DNA of 64,000 nt, taken from contig NC_134842.1 of NCBI RefSeq assembly GCF_965363235.1, forward strand, positions 33,976,757-34,040,756, given 5' to 3'. Positions 8,543 through 56,800 of the stretch are shown piece after piece. The stretch comes from Mytilus galloprovincialis. Its lineage: Eukaryota. Position 1 is the stretch's first letter. Each line of letters opens with the position of its first letter. The notes under the pieces are model-generated. The model was not told the origin of the DNA. It saw nothing but the letters and a program-made list of their open reading frames with translations, and ran no database searches. The position numbers were made by a program, and so were the translations under genes.

Positions 8543-8555
8543 GAATACTTTTAGT

Positions 8556-9712: not shown

Positions 9713-9713
9713 A

Positions 9714-16678: not shown

Positions 16679-16890
16679 ATGAGAAACGTAATATGTATAT
16701 TACATAACCAAATGAACTTATACCGAATAGTTTTATGTGGAAACTCTTCTTAGCCAGAAAGAACATTTTTTATCATGACCTCTGTCTGTTAAGACTGATG
16801 GATACAATTTTAATTCATACTTTTGCATTATGTTATTTGATGAAGATTTAATTCATAACTATTACTCTAAGTTTTCTTTTTAAATCTTAG

Positions 16891-17134
16891 ACATGAAGCA
16901 GAAAGATTAGAACAGGAAGCTAAAGGAAGATTAGAGAGACAGAAGATTTCAGATGAAGCAGAAGCCGAAAAATCCAGGAGACAGTTGTTGGAATTACAGG
17001 CAAACAGTGCTGCAGTAGAAAGTACTGGTCAGGCTAAAGCAGAGGCACAGTCCCGAGCTGAAGCTTCTAGGATTGAGGGTGAGGCAGCTGTAGACCAGGC
17101 CAAACTGAAATCACAGGCAATGAAAATTGAATCA
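16891..17134 (+). CDS. MVP: MVP exon 11: (R)[81 protein letters not shown]
   Basis: Acceptor aaatcttag|a completes the AGA codon; donor tca|gtaagt. Matches human [81 protein letters not shown]. Confidence 0.88.
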
Positions 17135-17519
17135 GTAAGTAGCATGGTTCATGTAAATTTTTACTGGAATTTGATGGCATAAGTGGTTAATAGGTGATTT
17201 GCTAAATCATTCAGATTTGACAACTTCATTGTTTAATTGTGTTTGATGTAGTTGTGAAGAATAGCCCACACACAAACTTAAATTTAAATCATTTCAGTTT
17301 AAAGTCGAGTTTATAATGGTGCTGGTTCCAAGTTTGTATATGTACCATTTTCTGTTTTGGCACAGTCCTTTTATTATCTGAAATTCTCTTTTGGGTGATC
17401 ATAAGAACCTTCGATTCATGTTACAACAAAACTACATGCTATCTATTCATTGAACTCAACAAAGCTGACAAGTTTTATTATTAATGATAACGTTAGTACA
17501 ATATAAAATCTTATTTTAG

Positions 17520-17861
17520 GAATCTGAATTGGAAAGACTTACACAAGCAAGAGAGGCAGAACTAGCATATGTCCGAGAACAAGATGAAATAGAACTAAGC
17601 AAATCTAGGGAAATGTCAAGCATTGAAACCACCAAATTCAAGAACATGGTGGACGCAATTGGAGCAAATACATTGGCAACCATGGCGTCGGCTGGACCAG
17701 ACCAACAGGTCCGTATGTTGCAGTCCCTGGGCCTGAAATCCACCTTAATCACGGACGGTAGCACACCTATTAATCTGTTTAATACAGCTAATGGATTGAT
17801 TGGAGGTATGATGCCAGCAAAGAGGCGAAATCGGAATGACGACGATGATTGTTATGAATAA
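17520..17861 (+). CDS. MVP: MVP exon 12 (terminal, includes TAA stop): [113 protein letters not shown]
   Basis: Acceptor cttattttag|gaa. Matches human EAELQRVQ...[58 protein letters not shown]. Stop TAA at 17859-17861. The C-terminal tail after NTANGLIGG is short and lineage-specific, so a further small intron at ggtatg (17807) cannot be excluded. Confidence 0.8.
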
Positions 17862-22852: not shown

Positions 22853-24177
22853 CAAACGGTCGTATAATATTGGTATGACTTTGGCGTCGTCATCGTCGTC
22901 GTCGTCGTCCGAAGACACATCGGTTTTCGCACTATAACTTGAGTTTAAGTGAATAGAAATCTGTGAAATTTAAACACAAGGTTTATGACCACAAAAGGAA
23001 GGTTGGGATTGATTTTAGGAGTTTTGGTCCCAACAGTTTAGGAATAAGGGGCCAAAAAGGGCCCAAATAAGCATTTTTCTTGTTTTTCGCACAATTACTT
23101 TAGTATAAGTTAATAGAAATCTATGAAATTTTAACACAAGGTTTATGACCACAAAATGAAGGTTTGGTTTTATTTTGGGAGTTTTGGTCCCATCGAATTA
23201 GAGGCCAAAAGGGTCCAAAATTAAACTTTGTTTGGTTTCATCAAAAAATGTATTATTGGGGTTCTTCGATATGCCAAATCTTACCGTGTATTCAGATTCT
23301 TAATTTCTGGTCCTGTTTTCAAATTGGTCTACATTAAGGTCCAAAGGGTCCAAAATTAAACTCAGCTTGATTTTAACAAAAATTGAATTCTTGGGGTTCT
23401 TTGATATGCTGAATCTAAACATGTACTAAGATTTTTGATTATGGGCCCAGTTTTCAAGTTGGTTTAAATCGGGGTCCAAAATTAAACTTTGTTTGATTTC
23501 AACAAAAATTGAATCATTGGGGTTCTTTGATATGCTGAATCTAAACATGTATTAAGATTTTTGCTTATAGACCCAGTTTTCAAGTTGGTCCAAATCGGGG
23601 TCCAAAATTAAACTTTGTTTGATTTCAACATTAATTGAATCCTTGGGGTTCTTTGATATGCTGAATCTAAAAATGTATTTATATTTTTTATTATAGTCCC
23701 AGTTTTCAAGTTGGTCCAAATCGGGGTCCTTAATTAAACTTTGTTTGATTTCAACCAAAAATGAATATATGGGGTTCCTTGATATATGCTGAATCTAACC
23801 ATGTATTTATATTTTTGATATTTTGGCCCGGTTATCAAATTGGTCCACATTGAGGTCTAAAGGGTCCAAAATAGAACTTTATTTGATTTCATCAAAAATT
23901 GAATTCATTGGGTTCTTTGATATGGTGAAACCATATATCTAGATTTTGGATATTGGACCATAATAGGTAAATGTCCAATTTAAAATGTTTAAGTTTTTAA
24001 GTTTAAGTTCTTAGACCACATTCATTCTGTGTCAGAAACCTATGTTGTGTCAACTATTTAATCACAATCCAAATTCAGAGCTGTATCAAGCTTGAATGTT
24101 GTGTCCATACTTGCCCCAACTGTTCAGGGTTCCACCTCTGCAGTCGTATAAAGCTGTGTCCTGCAGAGCATCTGGTT
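22853..24177 (+). mobile_element. Helitron/Helentron-like element copy C (downstream of MVP), same termini and internal satellites as A and B. Its 3' end shows CpG-to-TpG/CpA changes relative to A and B.
   Basis: 5' end ttttatacgaccgcaaacggtcg plus (CGT)n. 3' end ctctgcagtcgtataaagctgtgtcctgcagagcatctggtt, versus ctctgcggtcgtataaagctgcgccctgcggagcatctggtt in A and B. Confidence 0.6.
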
Positions 24178-24688
24178 ATTTACATAGTATTGTCTATAGT
24201 ATCTTCTTCTGCTATGTACTTGGAAAGAATATAAGATATTGCTACCAAATGATCGATGCAAGCTCATTCCTAAAATAGTCATATACCTAAAACTACCGAT
24301 AAAATAGTGTTTTAAAATGCACAACTTCTACCGAGTTTACATAAGTTATAACGTGTAACTGTATCCACAATGGTCGGCTTACTAATCATGGTCAGTCCAT
24401 ACAAAGGAAGATTCCCATTGCAAATAGTGGTTAGGCCATAGTTGTTTTTTTATTTGTTTTGCGTCCGCGTGCGGGTAGGTTTTCTGCCAATTTGTGTCAA
24501 AAACAAACACAAACTTTTTTTTGTTCGTCAGTAGAAAATCCGTATTTTCCGGGTTTTTCCAGCCGTGTTTTTGTGTATTCTTATACTCAAATCTATTTTG
24601 CGCTTTAAATAACAAGTACGCTCCTTATTTAAAGCGTTTAAGCGATCTTGACTTCGATACATGTGAAAGCAGAAATGGCCAGTATAGG

Positions 24689-25136
24689 CCCAAGACCACA
24701 ATTAATGACCCCGCTTTTCGTTGTTCACGAATATAGTTCCCTTTAATTATAGTGTATTTTTTCTTTATTTTTTTTTCTTTCCCTTTCTCATTCATTTCTT
24801 AGCTTTTCTGGGGTGGAAATGAAAGAAGAGAGCTGAAATAAACTTCTGGATGGTTTATTTTAACTGATTTTAATAAGGAAAGAGTGATTAGGCCAGGTGC
24901 AAAAAGGTTATATTTACACTTTTCGGAACATCTCTTGACTTGCCTATAGGGGTATGGATGTGTATTGGCCAAATTTGTATGATGTAAAGATGCAATTTTT
25001 CTGAAAATTGCATATATTTTTGGACTTGTACTGTACATTACACACACAAAAAATTAGACAAAAAGAATAGGCAATTTTTTTTTAATGCGACAAAACGTTA
25101 TAAAGAAATGATAGAGGAATTAATTGTGGTCTCGGG
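24689..25136. mobile_element. First copy of the 448-bp MITE-like element. Its left TIR is exactly the left boundary of the macrosatellite array.
   Basis: Unique sequence ...gaaatggccagtatagg | cccaagaccacaattaatg. The 14 bp to its left (tggccagtatagg) resembles the in-array junction tggcccctaatagg. Confidence 0.65.
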
Positions 25137-26436
25137 CCTAAGAGGTGCATTTCAGCAAATTTTGAATTTATACTTTGACAACTTCTCTGAATGATCTATT
25201 GGTATTGATTTGTCAAACTATATGAGAAGAAATGATTTCCACTTTTATTTGATAGAAATTTGTAAAAAAAGTCACTTTTCAGCTGATATGCCCAAAAAGT
25301 AGCTTTTTCACTTTTTTCAATATTTTTGCAAAAGCAGTATCCTTAATTTTTCTCTGACATTTTTTTTCTGATATTTATTTGTGTTTGTGGTATTTATTTC
25401 ATGTGTTTTACTCATTTGTGAACTCTGAACACAAAGAAAAGTGGATAAAAGCATTAAAAGAGTGCAAAATGTGCTGTTTTAATAGTCTAGGTCTAACGGT
25501 CCGTACGAAGCAAGTGAAATATGAAGTTCTATGCACTTAAAAATTTTATTTCTTTAAACAGATTGCACTGAATCTATATCAAAAGCACTTATTACTGGTT
25601 GTTTAAACTTGTCTGTTTCACAGAATACCTTTATTTTCTTCTGTTGGATGGCTGGTGGTTAAAATTTTGGCATTTTAAGACTGAAATTTCATGCAGATTT
25701 TAAACAGTAAATTGAAAAAACTTTGCATCAGACCATACTGTCTACATATATAGTTAAAAGCAACAGTCTTGTAACATCCAGGCTTCATATTTGATCATAT
25801 CTCAGCAAGGATTTGAGCAAAAAGAAGCATATTTCCATCTCCAATATCATTTATATGCAATTTAATATGGAAATATAGGGAACGGCCCAAATTGACAACT
25901 TGTTATTTTAAGCTTGACATTGCTTAAGACCATGTAAAACTCATGTGTTATGCTCTTTGAAACTTATATTTACATCAAAAGAACATTTATGATATGTAAA
26001 ATGTTTTGTTTTAACTTAACAACTTCAGAAAATTGTTGTAAGTGGAAAATATTACATTTCATATAAGGCCTCACTTCATTTGAAAACCTCTATTTTTTGG
26101 CATAGGCACATATAAAATTAACTTTTGTCAAATTTTTATAAGTCTCATACATTAAGTATGCTATCATGTACTTTGAATAGCTAATATATTATCCATTGAG
26201 ACATTAAAAAGTGCAATTTGGTGTTTTTTGGGGATTTTTGAAGCCAAAATTTGAAAGTTGAAATTGTTCTATTTCAACGTCACAATTCAGCAACCAAAGT
26301 TGAGATATAAAAAATGCCACATTTTCTATAATATATATCATATGGCTTTGAAACTTTGTAAACTGACTCATAATACACTAAGCTTAACTCATGCCAAGTT
26401 TTATTGGAATTGGTCAAGTTTTTGGCCCCTAATAGG

Positions 26437-26884
26437 CCCAAGACCACAATTAATGACCCCGCTTTTCGTTGTTCACGAATATAGTTCCCTTTAATTATAG
26501 TGTATTTTTTCTTTATTTTTTTTTCTTTCCCTTTCTCATTCATTTCTTAGCTTTTCTGGGGTGGAAATGAAAGAAGAGAGCTGAAATAAACTTCTGGATG
26601 GTTTATTTTAACTGATTTTAATAAGGAAAGAGTGATTAGGCCAGGTGCAAAAAGGTTATATTTACACTTTTCGGAACATCTCTTGACTTGCCTATAGGGG
26701 TATGGATGTGTATTGGCCAAATTTGTATGATGTAAAGATGCAATTTTTCTGAAAATTGCATATATTTTTGGACTTGTACTGTACATTACACACACAAAAA
26801 ATTAGACAAAAAGAATAGGCAATTTTTTTTTAATGCGACAAAACGTTATAAAGAAATGATAGAGGAATTAATTGTGGTCTCGGG
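26437..26884. mobile_element. 448-bp MITE-like insertion inside the macrosatellite unit (representative copy). 18-bp TIRs CCCAAGACCACAATTAAT / ATTAATTGTGGTCTCGGG, flanked by a 9-bp TSD CCTAATAGG / CCTAAGAGG. Present in 19 units, with starts at 24689, 26437, 28185, 29933, 31681, 33429, 37761, 39509, 42549, 45589, 47338, 49086, 50834, 52582, 55621, 57369, 59118, 60866 and 62615.
   Basis: Five units (empty sites at 35169-35177, 36461-36469, 41249-41257, 44289-44297, 54321-54329) lack exactly this 448 bp plus one TSD copy. That accounts precisely for the 457-bp difference (1748 vs 1291). Confidence 0.7.
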
Positions 26885-29800
26885 CCTAAGAGGTGCATTT
26901 CAGCAAATTTTGAATTTATACTTTGACAACTTCTCTGAATGATCTATTGGTATTGATTTGTCAAACTATATGAGAAGAAATGATTTCCACTTTTATTTGA
27001 TAGAAATTTGTAAAAAAAGTCACTTTTCAGCTGATATGCCCAAAAAGTAGCTTTTTCACTTTTTTCAATATTTTTGCAAAAGCAGTATCCTTAATTTTTC
27101 TCTGACATTTTTTTTCTGATATTTATTTGTGTTTGTGGTATTTATTTCATGTGTTTTACTCATTTGTGAACTCTGAACACAAAGAAAAGTGGATAAAAGC
27201 ATTAAAAGAGTGCAAAATGTGCTGTTTTAATAGTCTAGGTCTAACGGTCCGTACGAAGCAAGTGAAATATGAAGTTCTATGCACTTAAAAATTTTATTTC
27301 TTTAAACAGATTGCACTGAATCTATATCAAAAGCACTTATTACTGGTTGTTTAAACTTGTCTGTTTCACAGAATACCTTTATTTTCTTCTGTTGGATGGC
27401 TGGTGGTTAAAATTTTGGCATTTTAAGACTGAAATTTCATGCAGATTTTAAACAGTAAATTGAAAAAACTTTGCATCAGACCATACTGTCTACATATATA
27501 GTTAAAAGCAACAGTCTTGTAACATCCAGGCTTCATATTTGATCATATCTCAGCAAGGATTTGAGCAAAAAGAAGCATATTTCCATCTCCAATATCATTT
27601 ATATGCAATTTAATATGGAAATATAGGGAACGGCCCAAATTGACAACTTGTTATTTTAAGCTTGACATTGCTTAAGACCATGTAAAACTCATGTGTTATG
27701 CTCTTTGAAACTTATATTTACATCAAAAGAACATTTATGATATGTAAAATGTTTTGTTTTAACTTAACAACTTCAGAAAATTGTTGTAAGTGGAAAATAT
27801 TACATTTCATATAAGGCCTCACTTCATTTGAAAACCTCTATTTTTTGGCATAGGCACATATAAAATTAACTTTTGTCAAATTTTTATAAGTCTCATACAT
27901 TAAGTATGCTATCATGTACTTTGAATAGCTAATATATTATCCATTGAGACATTAAAAAGTGCAATTTGGTGTTTTTTGGGGATTTTTGAAGCCAAAATTT
28001 GAAAGTTGAAATTGTTCTATTTCAACGTCACAATTCAGCAACCAAAGTTGAGATATAAAAAATGCCACATTTTCTATAATATATATCATATGGCTTTGAA
28101 ACTTTGTAAACTGACTCATAATACACTAAGCTTAACTCATGCCAAGTTTTATTGGAATTGGTCAAGTTTTTGGCCCCTAATAGGCCCAAGACCACAATTA
28201 ATGACCCCGCTTTTCGTTGTTCACGAATATAGTTCCCTTTAATTATAGTGTATTTTTTCTTTATTTTTTTTTCTTTCCCTTTCTCATTCATTTCTTAGCT
28301 TTTCTGGGGTGGAAATGAAAGAAGAGAGCTGAAATAAACTTCTGGATGGTTTATTTTAACTGATTTTAATAAGGAAAGAGTGATTAGGCCAGGTGCAAAA
28401 AGGTTATATTTACACTTTTCGGAACATCTCTTGACTTGCCTATAGGGGTATGGATGTGTATTGGCCAAATTTGTATGATGTAAAGATGCAATTTTTCTGA
28501 AAATTGCATATATTTTTGGACTTGTACTGTACATTACACACACAAAAAATTAGACAAAAAGAATAGGCAATTTTTTTTTAATGCGACAAAACGTTATAAA
28601 GAAATGATAGAGGAATTAATTGTGGTCTCGGGCCTAAGAGGTGCATTTCAGCAAATTTTGAATTTATACTTTGACAACTTCTCTGAATGATCTATTGGTA
28701 TTGATTTGTCAAACTATATGAGAAGAAATGATTTCCACTTTTATTTGATAGAAATTTGTAAAAAAAGTCACTTTTCAGCTGATATGCCCAAAAAGTAGCT
28801 TTTTCACTTTTTTCAATATTTTTGCAAAAGCAGTATCCTTAATTTTTCTCTGACATTTTTTTTCTGATATTTATTTGTGTTTGTGGTATTTATTTCATGT
28901 GTTTTACTCATTTGTGAACTCTGAACACAAAGAAAAGTGGATAAAAGCATTAAAAGAGTGCAAAATGTGCTGTTTTAATAGTCTAGGTCTAACGGTCCGT
29001 ACGAAGCAAGTGAAATATGAAGTTCTATGCACTTAAAAATTTTATTTCTTTAAACAGATTGCACTGAATCTATATCAAAAGCACTTATTACTGGTTGTTT
29101 AAACTTGTCTGTTTCACAGAATACCTTTATTTTCTTCTGTTGGATGGCTGGTGGTTAAAATTTTGGCATTTTAAGACTGAAATTTCATGCAGATTTTAAA
29201 CAGTAAATTGAAAAAACTTTGCATCAGACCATACTGTCTACATATATAGTTAAAAGCAACAGTCTTGTAACATCCAGGCTTCATATTTGATCATATCTCA
29301 GCAAGGATTTGAGCAAAAAGAAGCATATTTCCATCTCCAATATCATTTATATGCAATTTAATATGGAAATATAGGGAACGGCCCAAATTGACAACTTGTT
29401 ATTTTAAGCTTGACATTGCTTAAGACCATGTAAAACTCATGTGTTATGCTCTTTGAAACTTATATTTACATCAAAAGAACATTTATGATATGTAAAATGT
29501 TTTGTTTTAACTTAACAACTTCAGAAAATTGTTGTAAGTGGAAAATATTACATTTCATATAAGGCCTCACTTCATTTGAAAACCTCTATTTTTTGGCATA
29601 GGCACATATAAAATTAACTTTTGTCAAATTTTTATAAGTCTCATACATTAAGTATGCTATCATGTACTTTGAATAGCTAATATATTATCCATTGAGACAT
29701 TAAAAAGTGCAATTTGGTGTTTTTTGGGGATTTTTGAAGCCAAAATTTGAAAGTTGAAATTGTTCTATTTCAACGTCACAATTCAGCAACCAAAGTTGAG

Positions 29801-32800: not shown

Positions 32801-35800
32801 GGATTTGAGCAAAAAGAAGCATATTTCCATCTCCAATATCATTTATATGCAATTTAATATGGAAATATAGGGAACGGCCCAAATTGACAACTTGTTATTT
32901 TAAGCTTGACATTGCTTAAGACCATGTAAAACTCATGTGTTATGCTCTTTGAAACTTATATTTACATCAAAAGAACATTTATGATATGTAAAATGTTTTG
33001 TTTTAACTTAACAACTTCAGAAAATTGTTGTAAGTGGAAAATATTACATTTCATATAAGGCCTCACTTCATTTGAAAACCTCTATTTTTTGGCATAGGCA
33101 CATATAAAATTAACTTTTGTCAAATTTTTATAAGTCTCATACATTAAGTATGCTATCATGTACTTTGAATAGCTAATATATTATCCATTGAGACATTAAA
33201 AAGTGCAATTTGGTGTTTTTTGGGGATTTTTGAAGCCAAAATTTGAAAGTTGAAATTGTTCTATTTCAACGTCACAATTCAGCAACCAAAGTTGAGATAT
33301 AAAAAATGCCACATTTTCTATAATATATATCATATGGCTTTGAAACTTTGTAAACTGACTCATAATACACTAAGCTTAACTCATGCCAAGTTTTATTGGA
33401 ATTGGTCAAGTTTTTGGCCCCTAATAGGCCCAAGACCACAATTAATGACCCCGCTTTTCGTTGTTCACGAATATAGTTCCCTTTAATTATAGTGTATTTT
33501 TTCTTTATTTTTTTTTCTTTCCCTTTCTCATTCATTTCTTAGCTTTTCTGGGGTGGAAATGAAAGAAGAGAGCTGAAATAAACTTCTGGATGGTTTATTT
33601 TAACTGATTTTAATAAGGAAAGAGTGATTAGGCCAGGTGCAAAAAGGTTATATTTACACTTTTCGGAACATCTCTTGACTTGCCTATAGGGGTATGGATG
33701 TGTATTGGCCAAATTTGTATGATGTAAAGATGCAATTTTTCTGAAAATTGCATATATTTTTGGACTTGTACTGTACATTACACACACAAAAAATTAGACA
33801 AAAAGAATAGGCAATTTTTTTTTAATGCGACAAAACGTTATAAAGAAATGATAGAGGAATTAATTGTGGTCTCGGGCCTAAGAGGTGCATTTCAGCAAAT
33901 TTTGAATTTATACTTTGACAACTTCTCTGAATGATCTATTGGTATTGATTTGTCAAACTATATGAGAAGAAATGATTTCCACTTTTATTTGATAGAAATT
34001 TGTAAAAAAAAGTCACTTTTCAGCTGATATGCCCAAAAAGTAGCTTTTTCACTTTTTTCAATATTTTTGCAAAAGCAGTATCCTTAATTTTTCTCTGACA
34101 TTTTTTTTCTGATATTTATTTGTGTTTGTGGTATTTATTTCATGTGTTTTACTCATTTGTGAACTCTGAACACAAAGAAAAGTGGATAAAAGCATTAAAA
34201 GAGTGCAAAATGTGCTGTTTTAATAGTCTAGGTCTAACGGTCCGTACGAAGCAAGTGAAATATGAAGTTCTATGCACTTAAAAATTTTATTTCTTTAAAC
34301 AGATTGCACTGAATCTATATCAAAAGCACTTATTACTGGTTGTTTAAACTTGTCTGTTTCACAGAATACCTTTATTTTCTTCTGTTGGATGGCTGGTGGT
34401 TAAAATTTTGGCATTTTAAGACTGAAATTTCATGCAGATTTTAAACAGTAAATTGAAAAAACTTTGCATCAGACCATACTGTCTACATATATAGTTAAAA
34501 GCAACAGTCTTGTAACATCCAGGCTTCATATTTGATCATATCTCAGCAAGGATTTGAGCAAAAAGAAGCATATTTCCATCTCCAATATCATTTATATGCA
34601 ATTTAATATGGAAATATAGGGAACGGCCCAAATTGACAACTTGTTATTTTAAGCTTGACATTGCTTAAGACCATGTAAAACTCATGTGTTATGCTCTTTG
34701 AAACTTATATTTACATCAAAAGAACATTTATGATATGTAAAATGTTTTGTTTTAACTTAACAACTTCAGAAAATTGTTGTAAGTGGAAAATATTACATTT
34801 CATATAAGGCCTCACTTCATTTGAAAACCTCTATTTTTTGGCATAGGCACATATAAAATTAACTTTTGTCAAATTTTTATAAGTCTCATACATTAAGTAT
34901 GCTATCATGTACTTTGAATAGCTAATATATTATCCATTGAGACATTAAAAAGTGCAATTTGGTGTTTTTTGGGGATTTTTGAAGCCAAAATTTGAAAGTT
35001 GAAATTGTTCTATTTCAACGTCACAATTCAGCAACCAAAGTTGAGATATAAAAAATGCCACATTTTCTATAATATATATCATATGGCTTTGAAACTTTGT
35101 AAACTGACTCATAATACACTAAGCTTAACTCATGCCAAGTTTTATTGGAATTGGTCAAGTTTTTGGCCCCTAATAGGTGCATTTCAGCAAATTTTGAATT
35201 TATACTTTGACAACTTCTCTGAATGATCTATTGGTATTGATTTGTCAAACTATATGAGAAGAAATGATTTCCACTTTTATTTGATAGAAATTTGTAAAAA
35301 AAAGTCACTTTTCAGCTGATATGCCCAAAAAGTAGCTTTTTCACTTTTTTCAATATTTTTGCAAAAGCAGTATCCTTAATTTTTCTCTGACATTTTTTTT
35401 CTGATATTTATTTGTGTTTGTGGTATTTATTTCATGTGTTTTACTCATTTGTGAACTCTGAACACAAAGAAAAGTGGATAAAAGCATTAAAAGAGTGCAA
35501 AATGTGCTGTTTTAATAGTCTAGGTCTAACGGTCCGTACGAAGCAAGTGAAATATGAAGTTCTATGCACTTAAAAATTTTATTTCTTTAAACAGATTGCA
35601 CTGAATCTATATCAAAAGCACTTATTACTGGTTGTTTAAACTTGTCTGTTTCACAGAATACCTTTATTTTCTTCTGTTGGATGGCTGGTGGTTAAAATTT
35701 TGGCATTTTAAGACTGAAATTTCATGCAGATTTTAAACAGTAAATTGAAAAAACTTTGCATCAGACCATACTGTCTACATATATAGTTAAAAGCAACAGT

Positions 35801-38800
35801 CTTGTAACATCCAGGCTTCATATTTGATCATATCTCAGCAAGGATTTGAGCAAAAAGAAGCATATTTCCATCTCCAATATCATTTATATGCAATTTAATA
35901 TGGAAATATAGGGAACGGCCCAAATTGACAACTTGTTATTTTAAGCTTGACATTGCTTAAGACCATGTAAAACTCATGTGTTATGCTCTTTGAAACTTAT
36001 ATTTACATCAAAAGAACATTTATGATATGTAAAATGTTTTGTTTTAACTTAACAACTTCAGAAAATTGTTGTAAGTGGAAAATATTACATTTCATATAAG
36101 GCCTCACTTCATTTGAAAACCTCTATTTTTTGGCATAGGCACATATAAAATTAACTTTTGTCAAATTTTTATAAGTCTCATACATTAAGTATGCTATCAT
36201 GTACTTTGAATAGCTAATATATTATCCATTGAGACATTAAAAAGTGCAATTTGGTGTTTTTTGGGGATTTTTGAAGCCAAAATTTGAAAGTTGAAATTGT
36301 TCTATTTCAACGTCACAATTCAGCAACCAAAGTTGAGATATAAAAAATGCCACATTTTCTATAATATATATCATATGGCTTTGAAACTTTGTAAACTGAC
36401 TCATAATACACTAAGCTTAACTCATGCCAAGTTTTATTGGAATTGGTCAAGTTTTTGGCCCCTAATAGGTGCATTTCAGCAAATTTTGAATTTATACTTT
36501 GACAACTTCTCTGAATGATCTATTGGTATTGATTTGTCAAACTATATGAGAAGAAATGATTTCCACTTTTATTTGATAGAAATTTGTAAAAAAAGTCACT
36601 TTTCAGCTGATATGCCCAAAAAGTAGCTTTTTCACTTTTTTCAATATTTTTGCAAAAGCAGTATCCTTAATTTTTCTCTGACATTTTTTTTCTGATATTT
36701 ATTTGTGTTTGTGGTATTTATTTCATGTGTTTTACTCATTTGTGAACTCTGAACACAAAGAAAAGTGGATAAAAGCATTAAAAGAGTGCAAAATGTGCTG
36801 TTTTAATAGTCTAGGTCTAACGGTCCGTACGAAGCAAGTGAAATATGAAGTTCTATGCACTTAAAAATTTTATTTCTTTAAACAGATTGCACTGAATCTA
36901 TATCAAAAGCACTTATTACTGGTTGTTTAAACTTGTCTGTTTCACAGAATACCTTTATTTTCTTCTGTTGGATGGCTGGTGGTTAAAATTTTGGCATTTT
37001 AAGACTGAAATTTCATGCAGATTTTAAACAGTAAATTGAAAAAACTTTGCATCAGACCATACTGTCTACATATATAGTTAAAAGCAACAGTCTTGTAACA
37101 TCCAGGCTTCATATTTGATCATATCTCAGCAAGGATTTGAGCAAAAAGAAGCATATTTCCATCTCCAATATCATTTATATGCAATTTAATATGGAAATAT
37201 AGGGAACGGCCCAAATTGACAACTTGTTATTTTAAGCTTGACATTGCTTAAGACCATGTAAAACTCATGTGTTATGCTCTTTGAAACTTATATTTACATC
37301 AAAAGAACATTTATGATATGTAAAATGTTTTGTTTTAACTTAACAACTTCAGAAAATTGTTGTAAGTGGAAAATATTACATTTCATATAAGGCCTCACTT
37401 CATTTGAAAACCTCTATTTTTTGGCATAGGCACATATAAAATTAACTTTTGTCAAATTTTTATAAGTCTCATACATTAAGTATGCTATCATGTACTTTGA
37501 ATAGCTAATATATTATCCATTGAGACATTAAAAAGTGCAATTTGGTGTTTTTTGGGGATTTTTGAAGCCAAAATTTGAAAGTTGAAATTGTTCTATTTCA
37601 ACGTCACAATTCAGCAACCAAAGTTGAGATATAAAAAATGCCACATTTTCTATAATATATATCATATGGCTTTGAAACTTTGTAAACTGACTCATAATAC
37701 ACTAAGCTTAACTCATGCCAAGTTTTATTGGAATTGGTCAAGTTTTTGGCCCCTAATAGGCCCAAGACCACAATTAATGACCCCGCTTTTCGTTGTTCAC
37801 GAATATAGTTCCCTTTAATTATAGTGTATTTTTTCTTTATTTTTTTTTCTTTCCCTTTCTCATTCATTTCTTAGCTTTTCTGGGGTGGAAATGAAAGAAG
37901 AGAGCTGAAATAAACTTCTGGATGGTTTATTTTAACTGATTTTAATAAGGAAAGAGTGATTAGGCCAGGTGCAAAAAGGTTATATTTACACTTTTCGGAA
38001 CATCTCTTGACTTGCCTATAGGGGTATGGATGTGTATTGGCCAAATTTGTATGATGTAAAGATGCAATTTTTCTGAAAATTGCATATATTTTTGGACTTG
38101 TACTGTACATTACACACACAAAAAATTAGACAAAAAGAATAGGCAATTTTTTTTTAATGCGACAAAACGTTATAAAGAAATGATAGAGGAATTAATTGTG
38201 GTCTCGGGCCTAAGAGGTGCATTTCAGCAAATTTTGAATTTATACTTTGACAACTTCTCTGAATGATCTATTGGTATTGATTTGTCAAACTATATGAGAA
38301 GAAATGATTTCCACTTTTATTTGATAGAAATTTGTAAAAAAAGTCACTTTTCAGCTGATATGCCCAAAAAGTAGCTTTTTCACTTTTTTCAATATTTTTG
38401 CAAAAGCAGTATCCTTAATTTTTCTCTGACATTTTTTTTCTGATATTTATTTGTGTTTGTGGTATTTATTTCATGTGTTTTACTCATTTGTGAACTCTGA
38501 ACACAAAGAAAAGTGGATAAAAGCATTAAAAGAGTGCAAAATGTGCTGTTTTAATAGTCTAGGTCTAACGGTCCGTACGAAGCAAGTGAAATATGAAGTT
38601 CTATGCACTTAAAAATTTTATTTCTTTAAACAGATTGCACTGAATCTATATCAAAAGCACTTATTACTGGTTGTTTAAACTTGTCTGTTTCACAGAATAC
38701 CTTTATTTTCTTCTGTTGGATGGCTGGTGGTTAAAATTTTGGCATTTTAAGACTGAAATTTCATGCAGATTTTAAACAGTAAATTGAAAAAACTTTGCAT

Positions 38801-41800
38801 CAGACCATACTGTCTACATATATAGTTAAAAGCAACAGTCTTGTAACATCCAGGCTTCATATTTGATCATATCTCAGCAAGGATTTGAGCAAAAAGAAGC
38901 ATATTTCCATCTCCAATATCATTTATATGCAATTTAATATGGAAATATAGGGAACGGCCCAAATTGACAACTTGTTATTTTAAGCTTGACATTGCTTAAG
39001 ACCATGTAAAACTCATGTGTTATGCTCTTTGAAACTTATATTTACATCAAAAGAACATTTATGATATGTAAAATGTTTTGTTTTAACTTAACAACTTCAG
39101 AAAATTGTTGTAAGTGGAAAATATTACATTTCATATAAGGCCTCACTTCATTTGAAAACCTCTATTTTTTGGCATAGGCACATATAAAATTAACTTTTGT
39201 CAAATTTTTATAAGTCTCATACATTAAGTATGCTATCATGTACTTTGAATAGCTAATATATTATCCATTGAGACATTAAAAAGTGCAATTTGGTGTTTTT
39301 TGGGGATTTTTGAAGCCAAAATTTGAAAGTTGAAATTGTTCTATTTCAACGTCACAATTCAGCAACCAAAGTTGAGATATAAAAAATGCCACATTTTCTA
39401 TAATATATATCATATGGCTTTGAAACTTTGTAAACTGACTCATAATACACTAAGCTTAACTCATGCCAAGTTTTATTGGAATTGGTCAAGTTTTTGGCCC
39501 CTAATAGGCCCAAGACCACAATTAATGACCCCGCTTTTCGTTGTTCACGAATATAGTTCCCTTTAATTATAGTGTATTTTTTCTTTATTTTTTTTTCTTT
39601 CCCTTTCTCATTCATTTCTTAGCTTTTCTGGGGTGGAAATGAAAGAAGAGAGCTGAAATAAACTTCTGGATGGTTTATTTTAACTGATTTTAATAAGGAA
39701 AGAGTGATTAGGCCAGGTGCAAAAAGGTTATATTTACACTTTTCGGAACATCTCTTGACTTGCCTATAGGGGTATGGATGTGTATTGGCCAAATTTGTAT
39801 GATGTAAAGATGCAATTTTTCTGAAAATTGCATATATTTTTGGACTTGTACTGTACATTACACACACAAAAAATTAGACAAAAAGAATAGGCAATTTTTT
39901 TTTAATGCGACAAAACGTTATAAAGAAATGATAGAGGAATTAATTGTGGTCTCGGGCCTAAGAGGTGCATTTCAGCAAATTTTGAATTTATACTTTGACA
40001 ACTTCTCTGAATGATCTATTGGTATTGATTTGTCAAACTATATGAGAAGAAATGATTTCCACTTTTATTTGATAGAAATTTGTAAAAAAAGTCACTTTTC
40101 AGCTGATATGCCCAAAAAGTAGCTTTTTCACTTTTTTCAATATTTTTGCAAAAGCAGTATCCTTAATTTTTCTCTGACATTTTTTTTCTGATATTTATTT
40201 GTGTTTGTGGTATTTATTTCATGTGTTTTACTCATTTGTGAACTCTGAACACAAAGAAAAGTGGATAAAAGCATTAAAAGAGTGCAAAATGTGCTGTTTT
40301 AATAGTCTAGGTCTAACGGTCAGTACGAAGCAAGTGAAATATGAAGTTCTATGCACTTAAAAATTTTATTTCTTTAAACAGATTGCACTGAATCTATATC
40401 AAAAGCACTTATTACTGGTTGTTTAAACTTGTCTGTTTCACAGAATACCTTTATTTTCTTCTGTTGGATGGCTGGTGGTTAAAATTTTGGCATTTTAAGA
40501 CTGAAATTTCATGCAGATTTTAAACAGTAAATTGAAAAAAACTTTGCATCAGACCATACTGTCTACATATATAGTTAAAAGCAACAGTCTTGTAACATCC
40601 AGGCTTCATATTTGATCATATCTCAGCAAGGATTTGAGCAAAAAGAAGCATATTTCCATCTCCAATATCATTTATATGCAATTTAATATGGAAATATAGG
40701 GAACGGCCCAAATTGACAACTTGTTATTTTAAGCTTGACATTGCTTAAGACCATGTAAAACTCATGTGTTATGCTCTTTGAAACTTATATTTACATCAAA
40801 AGAACATTTATGATATGTAAAATGTTTTGTTTTAACTTAACAACTTCAGAAAATTGTTGTAAGTGGAAAATATTACATTTCATATAAGGCCTCACTTCAT
40901 TTGAAAACCTCTATTTTTTGGCATAGGCACATATAAAATTAACTTTTGTCAAATTTTTATAAGTCTCATACATTAAGTATGCTATCATGTACTTTGAATA
41001 GCTAATATATTATCCATTGAGACATTAAAAAGTGCAATTTGGTGTTTTTTGGGGATTTTTGAAGCCAAAATTTGAAAGTTGAAATTGTTCTATTTCAACG
41101 TCACAATTCAGCAACCAAAGTTGAGATATAAAAAATGCCACATTTTCTATAATATATATCATATGGCTTTGAAACTTTGTAAACTGACTCATAATACACT
41201 AAGCTTAACTCATGCCAAGTTTTATTGGAATTGGTCAAGTTTTTGGCCCCTAATAGGTGCATTTCAGCAAATTTTGAATTTATACTTTGACAACTTCTCT
41301 GAATGATCTATTGGTATTGATTTGTCAAACTATATGAGAAGAAATGATTTCCACTTTTATTTGATAGAAATTTGTAAAAAAAGTCACTTTTCAGCTGATA
41401 TGCCCAAAAAGTAGCTTTTTCACTTTTTTCAATATTTTTGCAAAAGCAGTATCCTTAATTTTTCTCTGACATTTTTTTTCTGATATTTATTTGTGTTTGT
41501 GGTATTTATTTCATGTGTTTTACTCATTTGTGAACTCTGAACACAAAGAAAAGTGGATAAAAGCATTAAAAGAGTGCAAAATGTGCTGTTTTAATAGTCT
41601 AGGTCTAACGGTCCGTACGAAGCAAGTGAAATATGAAGTTCTATGCACTTAAAAATTTTATTTCTTTAAACAGATTGCACTGAATCTATATCAAAAGCAC
41701 TTATTACTGGTTGTTTAAACTTGTCTGTTTCACAGAATACCTTTATTTTCTTCTGTTGGATGGCTGGTGGTTAAAATTTTGGCATTTTAAGACTGAAATT

Positions 41801-44800
41801 TCATGCAGATTTTAAACAGTAAATTGAAAAAACTTTGCATCAGACCATACTGTCTACATATATAGTTAAAAGCAACAGTCTTGTAACATCCAGGCTTCAT
41901 ATTTGATCATATCTCAGCAAGGATTTGAGCAAAAAGAAGCATATTTCCATCTCCAATATCATTTATATGCAATTTAATATGGAAATATAGGGAACGGCCC
42001 AAATTGACAACTTGTTATTTTAAGCTTGACATTGCTTAAGACCATGTAAAACTCATGTGTTATGCTCTTTGAAACTTATATTTACATCAAAAGAACATTT
42101 ATGATATGTAAAATGTTTTGTTTTAACTTAACAACTTCAGAAAATTGTTGTAAGTGGAAAATATTACATTTCATATAAGGCCTCACTTCATTTGAAAACC
42201 TCTATTTTTTGGCATAGGCACATATAAAATTAACTTTTGTCAAATTTTTATAAGTCTCATACATTAAGTATGCTATCATGTACTTTGAATAGCTAATATA
42301 TTATCCATTGAGACATTAAAAAGTGCAATTTGGTGTTTTTTGGGGATTTTTGAAGCCAAAATTTGAAAGTTGAAATTGTTCTATTTCAACGTCACAATTC
42401 AGCAACCAAAGTTGAGATATAAAAAATGCCACATTTTCTATAATATATATCATATGGCTTTGAAACTTTGTAAACTGACTCATAATACACTAAGCTTAAC
42501 TCATGCCAAGTTTTATTGGAATTGGTCAAGTTTTTGGCCCCTAATAGGCCCAAGACCACAATTAATGACCCCGCTTTTCGTTGTTCACGAATATAGTTCC
42601 CTTTAATTATAGTGTATTTTTTCTTTATTTTTTTTTTCTTTCCCTTTCTCATTCATTTCTTAGCTTTTCTGGGGTGGAAATGAAAGAAGAGAGCTGAAAT
42701 AAACTTCTGGATGGTTTATTTTAACTGATTTTAATAAGGAAAGAGTGATTAGGCCAGGTGCAAAAAGGTTATATTTACACTTTTCGGAACATCTCTTGAC
42801 TTGCCTATAGGGGTATGGATGTGTATTGGCCAAATTTGTATGATGTAAAGATGCAATTTTTCTGAAAATTGCATATATTTTTGGACTTGTACTGTACATT
42901 ACACACACAAAAAATTAGACAAAAAGAATAGGCAATTTTTTTTTAATGCGACAAAACGTTATAAAGAAATGATAGAGGAATTAATTGTGGTCTCGGGCCT
43001 AAGAGGTGCATTTCAGCAAATTTTGAATTTATACTTTGACAACTTCTCTGAATGATCTATTGGTATTGATTTGTCAAACTATATGAGAAGAAATGATTTC
43101 CACTTTTATTTGATAGAAATTTGTAAAAAAAGTCACTTTTCAGCTGATATGCCCAAAAAGTAGCTTTTTCACTTTTTTCAATATTTTTGCAAAAGCAGTA
43201 TCCTTAATTTTTCTCTGACATTTTTTTTCTGATATTTATTTGTGTTTGTGGTATTTATTTCATGTGTTTTACTCATTTGTGAACTCTGAACACAAAGAAA
43301 AGTGGATAAAAGCATTAAAAGAGTGCAAAATGTGCTGTTTTAATAGTCTAGGTCTAACGGTCCGTACGAAGCAAGTGAAATATGAAGTTCTATGCACTTA
43401 AAAATTTTATTTCTTTAAACAGATTGCACTGAATCTATATCAAAAGCACTTATTACTGGTTGTTTAAACTTGTCTGTTTCACAGAATACCTTTATTTTCT
43501 TCTGTTGGATGGCTGGTGGTTAAAATTTTGGCATTTTAAGACTGAAATTTCATGCAGATTTTAAACAGTAAATTGAAAAAACTTTGCATCAGACCATACT
43601 GTCTACATATATAGTTAAAAGCAACAGTCTTGTAACATCCAGGCTTCATATTTGATCATATCTCAGCAAGGATTTGAGCAAAAAGAAGCATATTTCCATC
43701 TCCAATATCATTTATATGCAATTTAATATGGAAATATAGGGAACGGCCCAAATTGACAACTTGTTATTTTAAGCTTGACATTGCTTAAGACCATGTAAAA
43801 CTCATGTGTTATGCTCTTTGAAACTTATATTTACATCAAAAGAACATTTATGATATGTAAAATGTTTTGTTTTAACTTAACAACTTCAGAAAATTGTTGT
43901 AAGTGGAAAATATTACATTTCATATAAGGCCTCACTTCATTTGAAAACCTCTATTTTTTGGCATAGGCACATATAAAATTAACTTTTGTCAAATTTTTAT
44001 AAGTCTCATACATTAAGTATGCTATCATGTACTTTGAATAGCTAATATATTATCCATTGAGACATTAAAAAGTGCAATTTGGTGTTTTTTGGGGATTTTT
44101 GAAGCCAAAATTTGAAAGTTGAAATTGTTCTATTTCAACGTCACAATTCAGCAACCAAAGTTGAGATATAAAAAATGCCACATTTTCTATAATATATATC
44201 ATATGGCTTTGAAACTTTGTAAACTGACTCATAATACACTAAGCTTAACTCATGCCAAGTTTTATTGGAATTGGTCAAGTTTTTGGCCCCTAATAGGTGC
44301 ATTTCAGCAAATTTTGAATTTATACTTTGACAACTTCTCTGAATGATCTATTGGTATTGATTTGTCAAACTATATGAGAAGAAATGATTTCCACTTTTAT
44401 TTGATAGAAATTTGTAAAAAAAGTCACTTTTCAGCTGATATGCCCAAAAAGTAGCTTTTTCACTTTTTTCAATATTTTTGCAAAAGCAGTATCCTTAATT
44501 TTTCTCTGACATTTTTTTTCTGATATTTATTTGTGTTTGTGGTATTTATTTCATGTGTTTTACTCATTTGTGAACTCTGAACACAAAGAAAAGTGGATAA
44601 AAGCATTAAAAGAGTGCAAAATGTGCTGTTTTAATAGTCTAGGTCTAACGGTCCGTACGAAGCAAGTGAAATATGAAGTTCTATGCACTTAAAAATTTTA
44701 TTTCTTTAAACAGATTGCACTGAATCTATATCAAAAGCACTTATTACTGGTTGTTTAAACTTGTCTGTTTCACAGAATACCTTTATTTTCTTCTGTTGGA

Positions 44801-53800: not shown

Positions 53801-56800
53801 TTAAGCTTGACATTGCTTAAGACCATGTAAAACTCATGTGTTATGCTCTTTGAAACTTATATTTACATCAAAAGAACATTTATGATATGTAAAATGTTTT
53901 GTTTTAACTTAACAACTTCAGAAAATTGTTGTAAGTGGAAAATATTACATTTCATATAAGGCCTCACTTCATTTGAAAACCTCTATTTTTTGGCATAGGC
54001 ACATATAAAATTAACTTTTGTCAAATTTTTATAAGTCTCATACATTAAGTATGCTATCATGTACTTTGAATAGCTAATATATTATCCATTGAGACATTAA
54101 AAAGTGCAATTTGGTGTTTTTTGGGGATTTTTGAAGCCAAAATTTGAAAGTTGAAATTGTTCTATTTCAACGTCACAATTCAGCAACCAAAGTTGAGATA
54201 TAAAAAATGCCACATTTTCTATAATATATATCATATGGCTTTGAAACTTTGTAAACTGACTCATAATACACTAAGCTTAACTCATGCCAAGTTTTATTGG
54301 AATTGGTCAAGTTTTTGGCCCCTAAGAGGTGCATTTCAGCAAATTTTGAATTTATACTTTGACAACTTCTCTGAATGATCTATTGGTATTGATTTGTCAA
54401 ACTATATGAGAAGAAATGATTTCCACTTTTATTTGATAGAAATTTGTAAAAAAAGTCACTTTTCAGCTGATATGCCCAAAAAGTAGCTTTTTCACTTTTT
54501 TCAATATTTTTGCAAAAGCAGTATCCTTAATTTTTCTCTGACATTTTTTTTCTGATATTTATTTGTGTTTGTGGTATTTATTTCATGTGTTTTACTCATT
54601 TGTGAACTCTGAACACAAAGAAAAGTGGATAAAAGCATTAAAAGAGTGCAAAATGTGCTGTTTTAATAGTCTAGGTCTAACGGTCCGTACGAAGCAAGTG
54701 AAATATGAAGTTCTATGCACTTAAAAATTTTATTTCTTTAAACAGATTGCACTGAATCTATATCAAAAGCACTTATTACTGGTTGTTTAAACTTGTCTGT
54801 TTCACAGAATACCTTTATTTTCTTCTGTTGGATGGCTGGTGGTTAAAATTTTGGCATTTTAAGACTGAAATTTCATGCAGATTTTAAACAGTAAATTGAA
54901 AAAACTTTGCATCAGACCATACTGTCTACATATATAGTTAAAAGCAACAGTCTTGTAACATCCAGGCTTCATATTTGATCATATCTCAGCAAGGATTTGA
55001 GCAAAAAGAAGCATATTTCCATCTCCAATATCATTTATATGCAATTTAATATGGAAATATAGGGAACGGCCCAAATTGACAACTTGTTATTTTAAGCTTG
55101 ACATTGCTTAAGACCATGTAAAACTCATGTGTTATGCTCTTTGAAACTTATATTTACATCAAAAGAACATTTATGATATGTAAAATGTTTTGTTTTAACT
55201 TAACAACTTCAGAAAATTGTTGTAAGTGGAAAATATTACATTTCATATAAGGCCTCACTTCATTTGAAAACCTCTATTTTTTGGCATAGGCACATATAAA
55301 ATTAACTTTTGTCAAATTTTTATAAGTCTCATACATTAAGTATGCTATCATGTACTTTGAATAGCTAATATATTATCCATTGAGACATTAAAAAGTGCAA
55401 TTTGGTGTTTTTTGGGGATTTTTGAAGCCAAAATTTGAAAGTTGAAATTGTTCTATTTCAACGTCACAATTCAGCAACCAAAGTTGAGATATAAAAAATG
55501 CCACATTTTCTATAATATATATCATATGGCTTTGAAACTTTGTAAACTGACTCATAATACACTAAGCTTAACTCATGCCAAGTTTTATTGGAATTGGTCA
55601 AGTTTTTGGCCCCTAATAGGCCCAAGACCACAATTAATGACCCCGCTTTTCGTTGTTCACGAATATAGTTCCCTTTAATTATAGTGTATTTTTTCTTTAT
55701 TTTTTTTTCTTTCCCTTTCTCATTCATTTCTTAGCTTTTCTGGGGTGGAAATGAAAGAAGAGAGCTGAAATAAACTTCTGGATGGTTTATTTTAACTGAT
55801 TTTAATAAGGAAAGAGTGATTAGGCCAGGTGCAAAAAGGTTATATTTACACTTTTCGGAACATCTCTTGACTTGCCTATAGGGGTATGGATGTGTATTGG
55901 CCAAATTTGTATGATGTAAAGATGCAATTTTTCTGAAAATTGCATATATTTTTGGACTTGTACTGTACATTACACACACAAAAAATTAGACAAAAAGAAT
56001 AGGCAATTTTTTTTTAATGCGACAAAACGTTATAAAGAAATGATAGAGGAATTAATTGTGGTCTCGGGCCTAAGAGGTGCATTTCAGCAAATTTTGAATT
56101 TATACTTTGACAACTTCTCTGAATGATCTATTGGTATTGATTTGTCAAACTATATGAGAAGAAATGATTTCCACTTTTATTTGATAGAAATTTGTAAAAA
56201 AAGTCACTTTTCAGCTGATATGCCCAAAAAGTAGCTTTTTCACTTTTTTCAATATTTTTGCAAAAGCAGTATCCTTAATTTTTCTCTGACATTTTTTTTC
56301 TGATATTTATTTGTGTTTGTGGTATTTATTTCATGTGTTTTACTCATTTGTGAACTCTGAACACAAAGAAAAGTGGATAAAAGCATTAAAAGAGTGCAAA
56401 ATGTGCTGTTTTAATAGTCTAGGTCTAACGGTCCGTACGAAGCAAGTGAAATATGAAGTTCTATGCACTTAAAAATTTTATTTCTTTAAACAGATTGCAC
56501 TGAATCTATATCAAAAGCACTTATTACTGGTTGTTTAAACTTGTCTGTTTCACAGAATACCTTTATTTTCTTCTGTTGGATGGCTGGTGGTTAAAATTTT
56601 GGCATTTTAAGACTGAAATTTCATGCAGATTTTAAACAGTAAATTGAAAAAACTTTGCATCAGACCATACTGTCTACATATATAGTTAAAAGCAACAGTC
56701 TTGTAACATCCAGGCTTCATATTTGATCATATCTCAGCAAGGATTTGAGCAAAAAGAAGCATATTTCCATCTCCAATATCATTTATATGCAATTTAATAT

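Follow-up and report, generated by a model that had tools for sequence, protein, structure and literature searches.

The tandem array that occupies positions 24687 to 64000 (minus strand) of the window, a 64,000-nucleotide stretch of the Mytilus galloprovincialis genome, is very probably a multimer of a non-autonomous KolobokP transposon, (LTDR-INT)n, from which LTDRs have been removed at five places. Its family identity, architecture, boundary and junction types were established in this analysis, from motif positions, unit spacing and alignment of the LTDRs to the published consensus, relative to which the multimer lies in reverse complement. KolobokP elements have the form LTDR-INT-LTDR, where two LTDRs of ~450 bp, each with its own inverted ends of ~20 bp, surround an internal region (Kojima & Bao 2022, Mob DNA 13:24, PMC9587614). 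The same source gives, as traits of KolobokP, LTDRs of about 450 or 660 bp, inverted ends of 11-20 bp and a TSD of 3-5 bp, and describes two LTDRs bordering a 4-kb internal region in Mytilus genomes. It also reports multimers, (LTDR-INT)n-LTDR, in which two INTs occasionally meet without an LTDR and one or other INT tip bears a micro-deletion (mostly 3-4 bp at INT-INT junctions), and excision sites that lose 1-5 flanking bases on one side (PMC9587614). The pattern seen in the window is real, yet already explained: a published lineage of bivalve transposons ordinarily behaves in this way.

The multimer contains 19 LTDRs and 24 INT copies, the last INT being cut by the window end at 64000, past which the right side of the array continues. 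Anchor spacing from 24687 to the window end resolves two unit lengths, long (1748/1749 bp) and short (1291/1292 bp), with a baseline difference of exactly 457 bp, or 448 + 9; the variation of +/-1 bp is homopolymer length. Long (L) and short (S) units follow one another in the order LLLLLL SS LL S L S LLLLL S LLLLL. An exact-motif search recovers the left arm CCCAAGACCACAATTAAT 19 times and the right arm ATTAATTGTGGTCTCGGG 19 times, and all filled sites read ...GGCC CCTAATAGG|CCCAAG...CTCGGG|CCTAAGAGG TGCATT.... The preliminary description of this DNA, which had recorded a 448-bp segment with 17/18 terminal inverted repeats between CCTAATAGG and CCTAAGAGG, and 19 filled and five empty units in this order, is borne out on each of these points. 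No further copies of the segment or of the unit were found within the window outside the array.

A representative LTDR (26435..26886, minus strand, 452 bp, GGCC...GGCC), delimited by the ends conserved across diverged copies, equals that 448-bp segment plus GG and CC. One arm of its terminal inverted repeat, GGCCCAAGACCACAATTAAT (26435..26454), is complementary at 19/20 positions to the other, ATTAATTGTGGTCTCGGGCC (26867..26886), and the inverted repeat extends through the flanking 9-mers, at 26/30 over 26425-26454 / 26867-26896. The inverted repeat score is 15-18 here, a range to be set against background 466-bp windows, only 4 of 25,496 of which reach at least 8, and a predicted single-strand fold (z = -3.7) would place the 9-mers in the terminal stem. 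The GG...CC termini are conserved in all LTDR copies compared and fit the 5'-RR...YY-3' ends of KolobokP. Computed against published supplement text that carries machine-reading errors, the window LTDR is 88.8% identical to that of KolobokP-1_MyCo over positions 3-450 of 452 bp and 86.7% identical to that of KolobokP-4_MyGa, and the LTDR of locus L031 is 94% identical to the published consensus. Similarity of the window LTDR to Mytilus copies is 88-90%, and the AGACCACAATTAAT motif of the LTDR end recurs in KolobokP LTDRs described from other bivalves (PMC9587614). Independent LTDR copies, for which the preliminary description had proposed a search, lie in unrelated flanks at six loci (L002, L028, L030, L031, L034 and L036), which supports its view of the segment as a separate mobile unit bearing terminal inverted repeats. 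Scanning the 18-base end through bacterial genomes and viral contigs gave chance matches only; in a metagenome scan, one of 14 loci (L006) was real.

Autonomous relatives of the form LTDR-Y-LTDR are present at L006, L031, L034, L035 and L036. Repeats of 452 bp in direct orientation border the internal region Y at L031, L034, L035 and L036, and border a different internal region, X, in the window and at L032. Y is 3963 bp long. Its 667-aa ORF matches the Pfam PF20700 transposase domain (5e-65), and a 154-aa ORF on the opposite strand matches PF05551 (zf-His_Me_endon); the 667-aa ORF with a convergent ORF of 154 aa or 121 aa is carried by L006, L031 and L032. The Y proteins cluster with entries from Mytilus edulis, californianus, trossulus and coruscus. 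The complete element measures 452 + 3963 + 451 = ~4.87 kb, bears a 20-bp TIR and a 4-bp TSD (ATTC|...|ATTC at L031), and matches the Table S1 rows KolobokP-1_MyCo (4848 / 449 / 4 / 20), -4_MyGa and -6_MyEd. Although Pfam labels PF20700 'Mutator-like transposase', the published classification of this architecture and of the Mytilus families is Kolobok.

The window carries X as its INT. A representative copy (26887..28182, minus strand, 1296 bp, TAAGAGG...CCTAATA) is non-coding and 96% identical (96.3%) to the copy at L032, a metagenome contig in which X sits as LTDR-X-LTDR-Y and whose Y is 99.7% identical to the Y of L006. No protein relatives of X were found in six frames, the remaining reading frames of the unit gave no matches at the protein level, a profile built from five ORF relatives found nothing new, and no RNA genes (Rfam, tRNA) occur in the unit. 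X as a remnant of Y was ruled out, there being no protein or DNA similarity between the two. With a non-coding INT in the window and a transposase-encoding relative with the same ends at L006 and L031, two expectations of the preliminary description, a non-autonomous segment and a coding relative elsewhere, proved correct.

The left edge of the array coincides with the left end of the segment at 24687, where the junction reads ...CCAGTATA|GGCCCAAG and the flank is unique; no unit homology was detected in the window upstream of 24684. The first LTDR (24687..25138, minus strand), the outer terminus of the element, is 100% identical to the internal copies from 24684 on. The TATA directly outside it (24683..24686) is the predicted 4-bp TSD of the whole multimer, and a partner TATA is predicted after the last LTDR, beyond the window. 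That the array starts exactly at an LTDR terminus would follow from unequal exchange between LTDRs having multiplied LTDR-INT; had the array pre-existed, such a start would be a coincidence of less than 1%. The idea of a TIR element inserted into a pre-existing array thus gives way, the array being the transposon multimer itself.

The 9-mers decompose accordingly. The left one, CCTAATAGG (26428..26436), consists of the last seven bases of the preceding INT (CCTAATA) and the first two LTDR bases (GG); the right one, CCTAAGAGG (26885..26893), of the last two LTDR bases (CC) and the first seven INT bases (TAAGAGG). Judged from the sequence, each is two LTDR bases plus seven INT bases and not a 9-bp TSD. 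The family-wide conserved ends GGCC...GGCC assign two bases of each 9-mer to the element, and the same CTAATA|GGCC and GGCC|TAAGAGG junctions border the unrelated 3.96-kb internal region at other loci. Because the 9-mers are part element and part INT, the Mutator or hAT inference once drawn from their length fails; the family is very probably KolobokP, of the Kolobok superfamily, the Pfam label notwithstanding. Contrary to the expectation that other copies would carry 9-bp TSDs, no 9-bp repeat was found at the outer flanks of solo or composite copies, which, read in the register of the 9-mers, match at 1-4 of 9 positions (L031 1/9, L036 3/9, L034 1-2/9, L002 4/9). Perfect 4-bp duplications occur in two of the four testable outer-flank pairs, ATTC at L031 and TGTT at L002, and a 4-bp match is absent at the older copies L034 (TATA/TTAA) and L036 (ATTA/TAAG). 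A 4-bp TSD is listed for the matching Mytilus families in Table S1 (PMC9587614).

These data weigh heavily against the reading of a single insertion, by a miniature element of Mutator-like or hAT-like kind, into a pre-existing 1291-bp satellite unit with a 9-bp TSD, after which filled and empty units were co-amplified. An 8/9 direct repeat around a 17/18 inverted-repeat segment, a single 9-mer in each short unit and the 'Mutator-like' name that Pfam gives the associated transposase all invite it. However, every copy keeps the GG and CC of the 9-mers as conserved ends of the element, and at other loci and in other species the unrelated Y is bordered by junction bases identical to these, down to the T/G difference and the side on which each base stands. 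No outer flank examined has a 9-bp repeat, the array begins at an element terminus, there are two different 'empty' alleles, and the literature places the family in Kolobok, with a TSD of 4 bp (PMC9587614). We regard such an insertion as scarcely credible. An X-only array in a sister species or population, without an LTDR at its edges and with uninterrupted ...CCTAATATAAGAGG... or single-9-mer junctions, would mean that the array is older than the LTDR.

Other superfamilies were also considered. A hAT element needs an 8-bp TSD and YARNG ends, whereas the ends here are GGCCC.../...GGGCC and no 8-bp repeat is consistent, the 6/8 match seen only at L002 being TGTT plus the element's own GG. The 8-11-bp TSD of Mutator/MULE elements is missing from the outer flanks of L031, L036, L034 and L002. 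A PIF/Harbinger assignment rested on mPing-like ends (GGCCAGTCACAATGG versus GGCCCAAGACCACAAT, a mere lead that did not hold up), on the TAA beside the right end and on taking the G-type short junction for a precise empty site; this assignment was abandoned because the left TAA is two bases out of register and other copies lack TWA. The 3-bp flanks are ATA/TAA in the window, GTT/TGT at L002 and TTC/ATT at L031; L028 and L030, where the right flank is the one available, read GTA and AGT there. Treating the 9-mers as an inverted-repeat extension or as the core of a site-specific recombination system was superseded by the LTDR/INT decomposition obtained from complete elements.

A short unit is an INT-INT junction without an LTDR, minus 5 bp of one INT tip. 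The five junctions are not uniform: four carry CCTAATAGG (T type) and one carries CCTAAGAGG (G type). At the first T-type junction (35169..35177) the LTDR is missing and the first five bases (TAAGA) of the right-hand INT are lost; the others, found by exact-motif search, lie at 36461..36469, at 41249..41257 on a different unit haplotype (C>A plus A insertion) and at 44289..44297 on the majority haplotype. At the G-type junction (54321..54329), the bases are lost from the tip (TAATA) of the left-hand INT. Divergence among units is tiny, with five variable sites among 23 units and two more within the 448-bp segment. Since those five are the only variable sites in ~30 kb of INT copies, an origin of the G type as a random point change of the T type is not reasonable, with a chance that we estimate at roughly 1e-3. 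The short units do represent a state without the segment, as the preliminary description had it, but with two junction types they are not a perfect empty site. Short units fall on three unit haplotypes that long units carry as well. Nor were both allelic states captured and co-amplified, the two types showing secondary loss instead, of the kind described for this lineage (PMC9587614); the other suggestion of the preliminary description, loss within the array, named the right kind of process. A comparable junction occurs in an array from Mytilus trossulus (L035), where a Y-Y junction reads TCTAAGAGG.

Units more than 99.9% identical, with homopolymer lengths making up three of the variable sites, are the kind of sequence in which assemblies are error-prone, and mis-assembly of near-identical repeats might have produced the long/short order or the short units themselves. 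This is very improbable. Collapse does not yield clean 457-bp deletions with two distinct junction sequences, and linked variants define haplotypes, C>A always occurring together with the A insertion. The same junction class, moreover, appears in the independent assembly of another species (L035) and has been published (PMC9587614).

For the KolobokP multimer, we propose that unequal exchange between LTDRs multiplied LTDR-INT into at least 24 units, possibly aided by nuclease cuts or LTDR-INT circles. Unequal exchange between LTDRs cannot produce an INT-INT junction, and the two junction types show secondary LTDR loss. At five places an LTDR would have been removed together with five flanking bases of one INT tip. 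Four of these removals took bases from the right tip and left CCTAATAGG; the fifth took them from the left tip and left CCTAAGAGG. Following PMC9587614, the LTDR would have been excised as a non-autonomous unit in a transposase-linked step, perhaps via a circle with a TSD-length spacer, and the short state may then have spread locally by unit duplication, a pair of adjacent short units having one haplotype in common.

The sequence fits both excision driven by the transposase and a transposase-independent deletion whose endpoints are the 8/9 direct repeats at the base of the inverted-repeat stem. With the KolobokP identity unchanged, short units may conceivably have arisen through replication slippage or microhomology-mediated end joining between those repeats, much like the transposase-independent precise excision of Tn10/Tn5 in bacteria, though we think this the less probable course. 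In the 9-mer register, precisely one repeat period (457 bp) is deleted, the direct repeats sit at the base of a 27-30-bp inverted-repeat stem with the predicted fold noted above, a crossover on either side of the mismatch yields both the T and the G outcome, and LTDR-TAAGA-LTDR in L035 is likewise one shared 9-mer. Yet at least two, possibly four, independent events against only ~7 other mutations in the array favour a catalysed process. In other KolobokP families, with different INT tips, a one-sided micro-deletion is likewise the rule when an LTDR is lost, and INT-LTDR and LTDR-INT forms are common and asymmetric, which implicates the transposition machinery (PMC9587614).

A bolder version of transposase-linked excision, in which the array would record LTDR mobilisation still under way via circular intermediates, we consider unlikely. 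The 5-bp losses on both sides would then be excision taking a TSD-length spacer from either flank, and LTDR-TAAGA-LTDR in L035 would be the junction of a circle that homologous recombination had reintegrated. If true, the family would be active in mussels at present, and the timing of excision relative to unequal exchange could be read from unit patterns.

What the window adds to the published lineage is a large example (at least 24 units) of a Mytilus family that is non-autonomous and has an internal region absent from the published table, and the loss of flanking bases on either side upon LTDR loss, seen inside one near-identical array. For annotators, it warns that a short palindromic junction beside inverted repeats can mimic a 9-bp TSD and mislead superfamily assignment, a risk that Pfam's 'Mutator-like' label raises further.

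The closest known system is the KolobokP-1_MyCo / -4_MyGa / -6_MyEd group, which shares with the window multimer and its relatives ~450-bp LTDRs with 20-bp inverted ends, a GG start, a CC end and, probably, a 4-bp TSD, ~4.87-kb LTDR-INT-LTDR monomers encoding a transposase and an opposite-strand His-Me finger nuclease, and solo LTDRs, LTDR-sharing multimers and INT-INT micro-deletion junctions. The window differs in its INT of 1296 bp, which is non-coding and absent from the Mytilus families in Table S1 (no N1_MyCo or N1_MyGa), in the size of its multimer (at least 24 units, >39 kb), in a micro-deletion of 5 bp, and in an LTDR ~10% off the LTDRs adjoining Y even though its X is 96% identical to the L032 copy. 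In bacterial composite and pseudo-compound transposons (Tn10, IS26 translocatable units), too, two direct copies of a short element, each with inverted ends of its own, enclose a cargo, either that element or the composite as a whole is mobile, and arrays arise by recombination between flanking copies; in KolobokP, however, the transposase is in the cargo rather than in the flanking repeats, the host is a eukaryote and the transposase is of another superfamily. LTR retrotransposons and TRIMs likewise form (LTR-INT)n-LTR arrays and solo repeats by unequal exchange (PMC12628747; PMC9587614), but INT-INT junctions are not expected of them because LTRs have no functional inverted ends and do not undergo excision. 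Precise excision of mPing (PIF/Harbinger) via TSD microhomology also leaves one copy of a short flanking repeat, although its TSD is the 3-bp TAA/TTA and it belongs to another superfamily (PMC4561436).

Exact searches with the inverted arms of the 448-bp segment (19 occurrences of each in the window), together with unit-anchor spacing, show a tandem array that starts at 24687 and runs to the window end at 64000; its right end and the target site duplication expected there lie beyond the window. Anchor spacing resolves long units of 1748 or 1749 bp and short units of 1291 or 1292 bp in the order LLLLLL SS LL S L S LLLLL S LLLLL, which is the order given in the preliminary description. The baseline difference between long and short is exactly 457 bp, additional single bases being homopolymer-length variants. 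All filled sites read GGCC-CCTAATAGG-CCCAAG...CTCGGG-CCTAAGAGG-TGCATT; the short junctions differ among themselves, with CCTAATAGG in four of the five and CCTAAGAGG in the other. The inverted repeat is not a product of chance, since it scores 15-18, whereas among 25,496 background windows of equal span only 4 score 8 or more. Motif searches, spacing and background score thus confirm the arms, the filled/empty difference and the unit order first described. The units are almost identical: comparison of 23 of them gives five variable sites, and the segment adds two more. Three unit haplotypes carry short units, and each is present in long units too.

The left edge of the array coincides with the left end of the segment (...CCAGTATA|GGCCCAAG); the sequence upstream is unique, and no unit homology was found in window positions 1-24683. 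Had the segment inserted into a pre-existing satellite, as was proposed, the edge of an array of 1291-bp units would have to lie by chance only a few bases from where the segment later landed, a coincidence of less than 1%. Upstream of the array lie exons of a major vault protein gene (5910-17861, plus strand; Pfam Vault, Vault_2, Vault_3, Vault_4 and MVP_shoulder), so the window is gene-bearing metazoan DNA. A composite repeat, built of tandem repeats of ~161 bp, 126-135 bp and 35 bp, occurs at least three times (8554-9917, 11111-12706 and 23100-23929), partly inside the vault-protein gene region, and a piece at 22693 is inverted relative to 23130-23158. It resembles satellite-carrying mobile elements reported in bivalves.

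An 82-aa ORF within the segment, used as a search handle and not taken as a gene, retrieved related ORFs from public contigs. Among the loci so reached are a filled unit of this type of array (L001; 96% identity, both junctions the same), a solo segment copy in unrelated flanks (L002; 92.6% identity, flanked by TGTT/TGTT), two copies at 76-80% (L028 and L030) and a core fragment (L029). Conservation across the five loci stops at GGCC on either side, so the GG and CC of the 9-mers, the 8/9-matching direct repeats at the segment edges, are the element's own bases. The best-conserved part among diverged copies is the segment centre (~150 bp; window 26604-26748), which is 87% identical in L029, where it is present without the inverted ends (2384-2530).

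Scanning metagenome contigs with the 18-base end identified a further locus, L006, in which the right end of the segment is followed by TAAGAGG and a 3.96-kb region (Y) unrelated to the rest of the window unit (X); Y ends in CTAATA, after which the left end of another copy begins. The junctions around Y repeat the bases of the window junctions, and the T/G difference falls on matching sides in both. Because they are identical beside an unrelated sequence, these bases are not a target site duplication (TSD) from one insertion into X. An intact 667-aa protein is encoded by Y (L006 1000-3003, minus strand); its Pfam match is PF20700 ('Mutator-like transposase'), at 5e-65. The opposite strand codes for a 154-aa protein, which has a His-Me finger domain of the I-PpoI type (PF05551). 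Proteins of Mytilus edulis, M. californianus, M. trossulus and M. coruscus share the 90% cluster of this transposase and place the host group among Mytilus mussels. In M. edulis (L031), two direct 452-bp copies of the segment, here long terminal direct repeats (LTDRs), surround Y as flank-ATTC|LTDR-Y-LTDR|ATTC-flank, with a 4-bp duplication. Across all loci, clean TSDs were found in two of the four testable outer-flank pairs. Locus L032 reads LTDR-X-LTDR-Y, its X being 96.3% identical to that of the window. The window LTDR is only ~90% identical to the Y-adjoining LTDRs of L032 (reverse-complement 1394-1844) and L031, despite the 96% identity of X, and this suggests that here the LTDR subfamily was exchanged or converted independently of the internal region (INT). 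The outer LTDR end in L031 (reverse-complement 8641-8712) has a 36-bp tandem duplication of its first bases, with GGCCCAAGACCACAATTAATGACCCCACTTTTCGTT twice. About 260 bp upstream of an M. californianus LTDR-Y-LTDR copy is another LTDR-like left end, more diverged, with the sequence TTTATA|GGCTTCAGACCACAATTAAT (L036, reverse-complement 7680-7750).

A search of the literature for a transposase paired with a His-Me nuclease led to the KolobokP transposons of Kojima & Bao 2022 (PMC9587614). In these, an INT lies between two LTDRs of ~450 bp, each with its own short inverted ends and RR...YY termini, and TSDs are 3-5 bp; LTDRs also occur abundantly as solo copies, and there are multimers, (LTDR-INT)n-LTDR (PMC9587614). 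The published LTDR consensus of KolobokP-1_MyCo aligns over its whole length with the reverse complement of the window segment at 88.8%, and with the L031 LTDR at 94%, both figures being lowered by machine-reading errors in the supplement; the AGACCACAATTAAT end motif is common to other bivalve KolobokP LTDRs. Architecture and LTDR sequence together directly identify the window element as KolobokP, in place of the Mutator- or hAT-like assignment; naming by PF20700 alone would place these elements in the wrong superfamily. The suggested 9-bp TSD likewise gives way to conserved GG/CC ends, junctions shared with Y, and the 4-bp duplications of L031 and L002.

The long unit is accordingly an LTDR (452 bp, e.g. 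26435-26886) plus a non-coding INT (1296 bp, e.g. 26887-28182; TAAGAGG...CCTAATA), and the short unit is an INT minus 5 bp. The left 9-mer consists of seven INT bases and the LTDR GG, the right one of the LTDR CC and seven INT bases. The INT tips TAATA and TAAGA are alike and GG/CC complete the pattern, which gives the two 9-mers the look of an 8/9 direct repeat. T-type short junctions lack TAAGA, the right-hand INT tip, and the G-type lacks bases of the left-hand tip, TAATA. Since unequal LTDR exchange moves whole LTDR-INT periods only, these INT-INT junctions are secondary LTDR losses, at least two of them independent, one per junction type. Up to four would be compatible with the three haplotype backgrounds, but markers could also have been shuffled by unit exchange. 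The filled arrangement predates the present homogeneity of the array, because both its junctions exist in the 4%-diverged L001. The preliminary interpretation therefore holds for a genuine element bounded by terminal inverted repeats (independent copies such as L002), its non-autonomy (the INT is non-coding), a transposase partner (Y, between copies of the same ends) and loss within the array, but not for TSD, superfamily, satellite insertion or pristine empty sites.

Whereas family, architecture, boundary and junction classes are read directly, the mode of LTDR removal is one that we infer. In KolobokP multimers the LTDR that separates two INTs is sometimes lacking, and one or the other INT tip then carries a micro-deletion; excision takes 1-5 flanking bases from one side only (PMC9587614). 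Data from other families, namely one-sided micro-deletions and many asymmetric INT-LTDR forms, favour an excision linked to the transposase in which the LTDR leaves as a non-autonomous unit, perhaps via a circle with a TSD-length spacer (PMC9587614). The same products would arise if the LTDR were deleted between the 8/9 repeats without transposase; these repeats lie at the base of the inverted-repeat stem, and a predicted fold places the 9-mers within it. We consider this route possible but less likely than excision. In M. trossulus (L035; GCA_036588685.2, JAZBVT010000048.1), the array runs LTDR-Y-LTDR-LTDR-Y-Y-LTDR-Y-LTDR. Only TAAGA separates two of its LTDRs (reverse-complement 4730-4734), and the resulting GGGCC-TAAGA-GGCCC resembles, in sequence, what an excised LTDR circle with a 5-bp spacer would have at its junction. 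Beside this LTDR-LTDR, two Y regions abut without an LTDR (reverse-complement 9142, TCTAAGAGG). The main text of PMC9587614 does not use the term 'LTDR-LTDR'.

Array growth would follow the published multimer model, unequal exchange between LTDRs, possibly nuclease-induced (PMC9587614), which fits the left boundary and the way in which neighbouring units share variants locally. The window array is a non-autonomous KolobokP family whose INT is absent from the published Mytilus list and whose multimer is unusually long. Its coding relatives, LTDR-Y-LTDR copies of ~4.87 kb, share the parameters of KolobokP-1_MyCo (4848 bp, LTDR 449, TSD 4, TIR 20), to which KolobokP-4_MyGa and KolobokP-6_MyEd are similar (Table S1 of PMC9587614).
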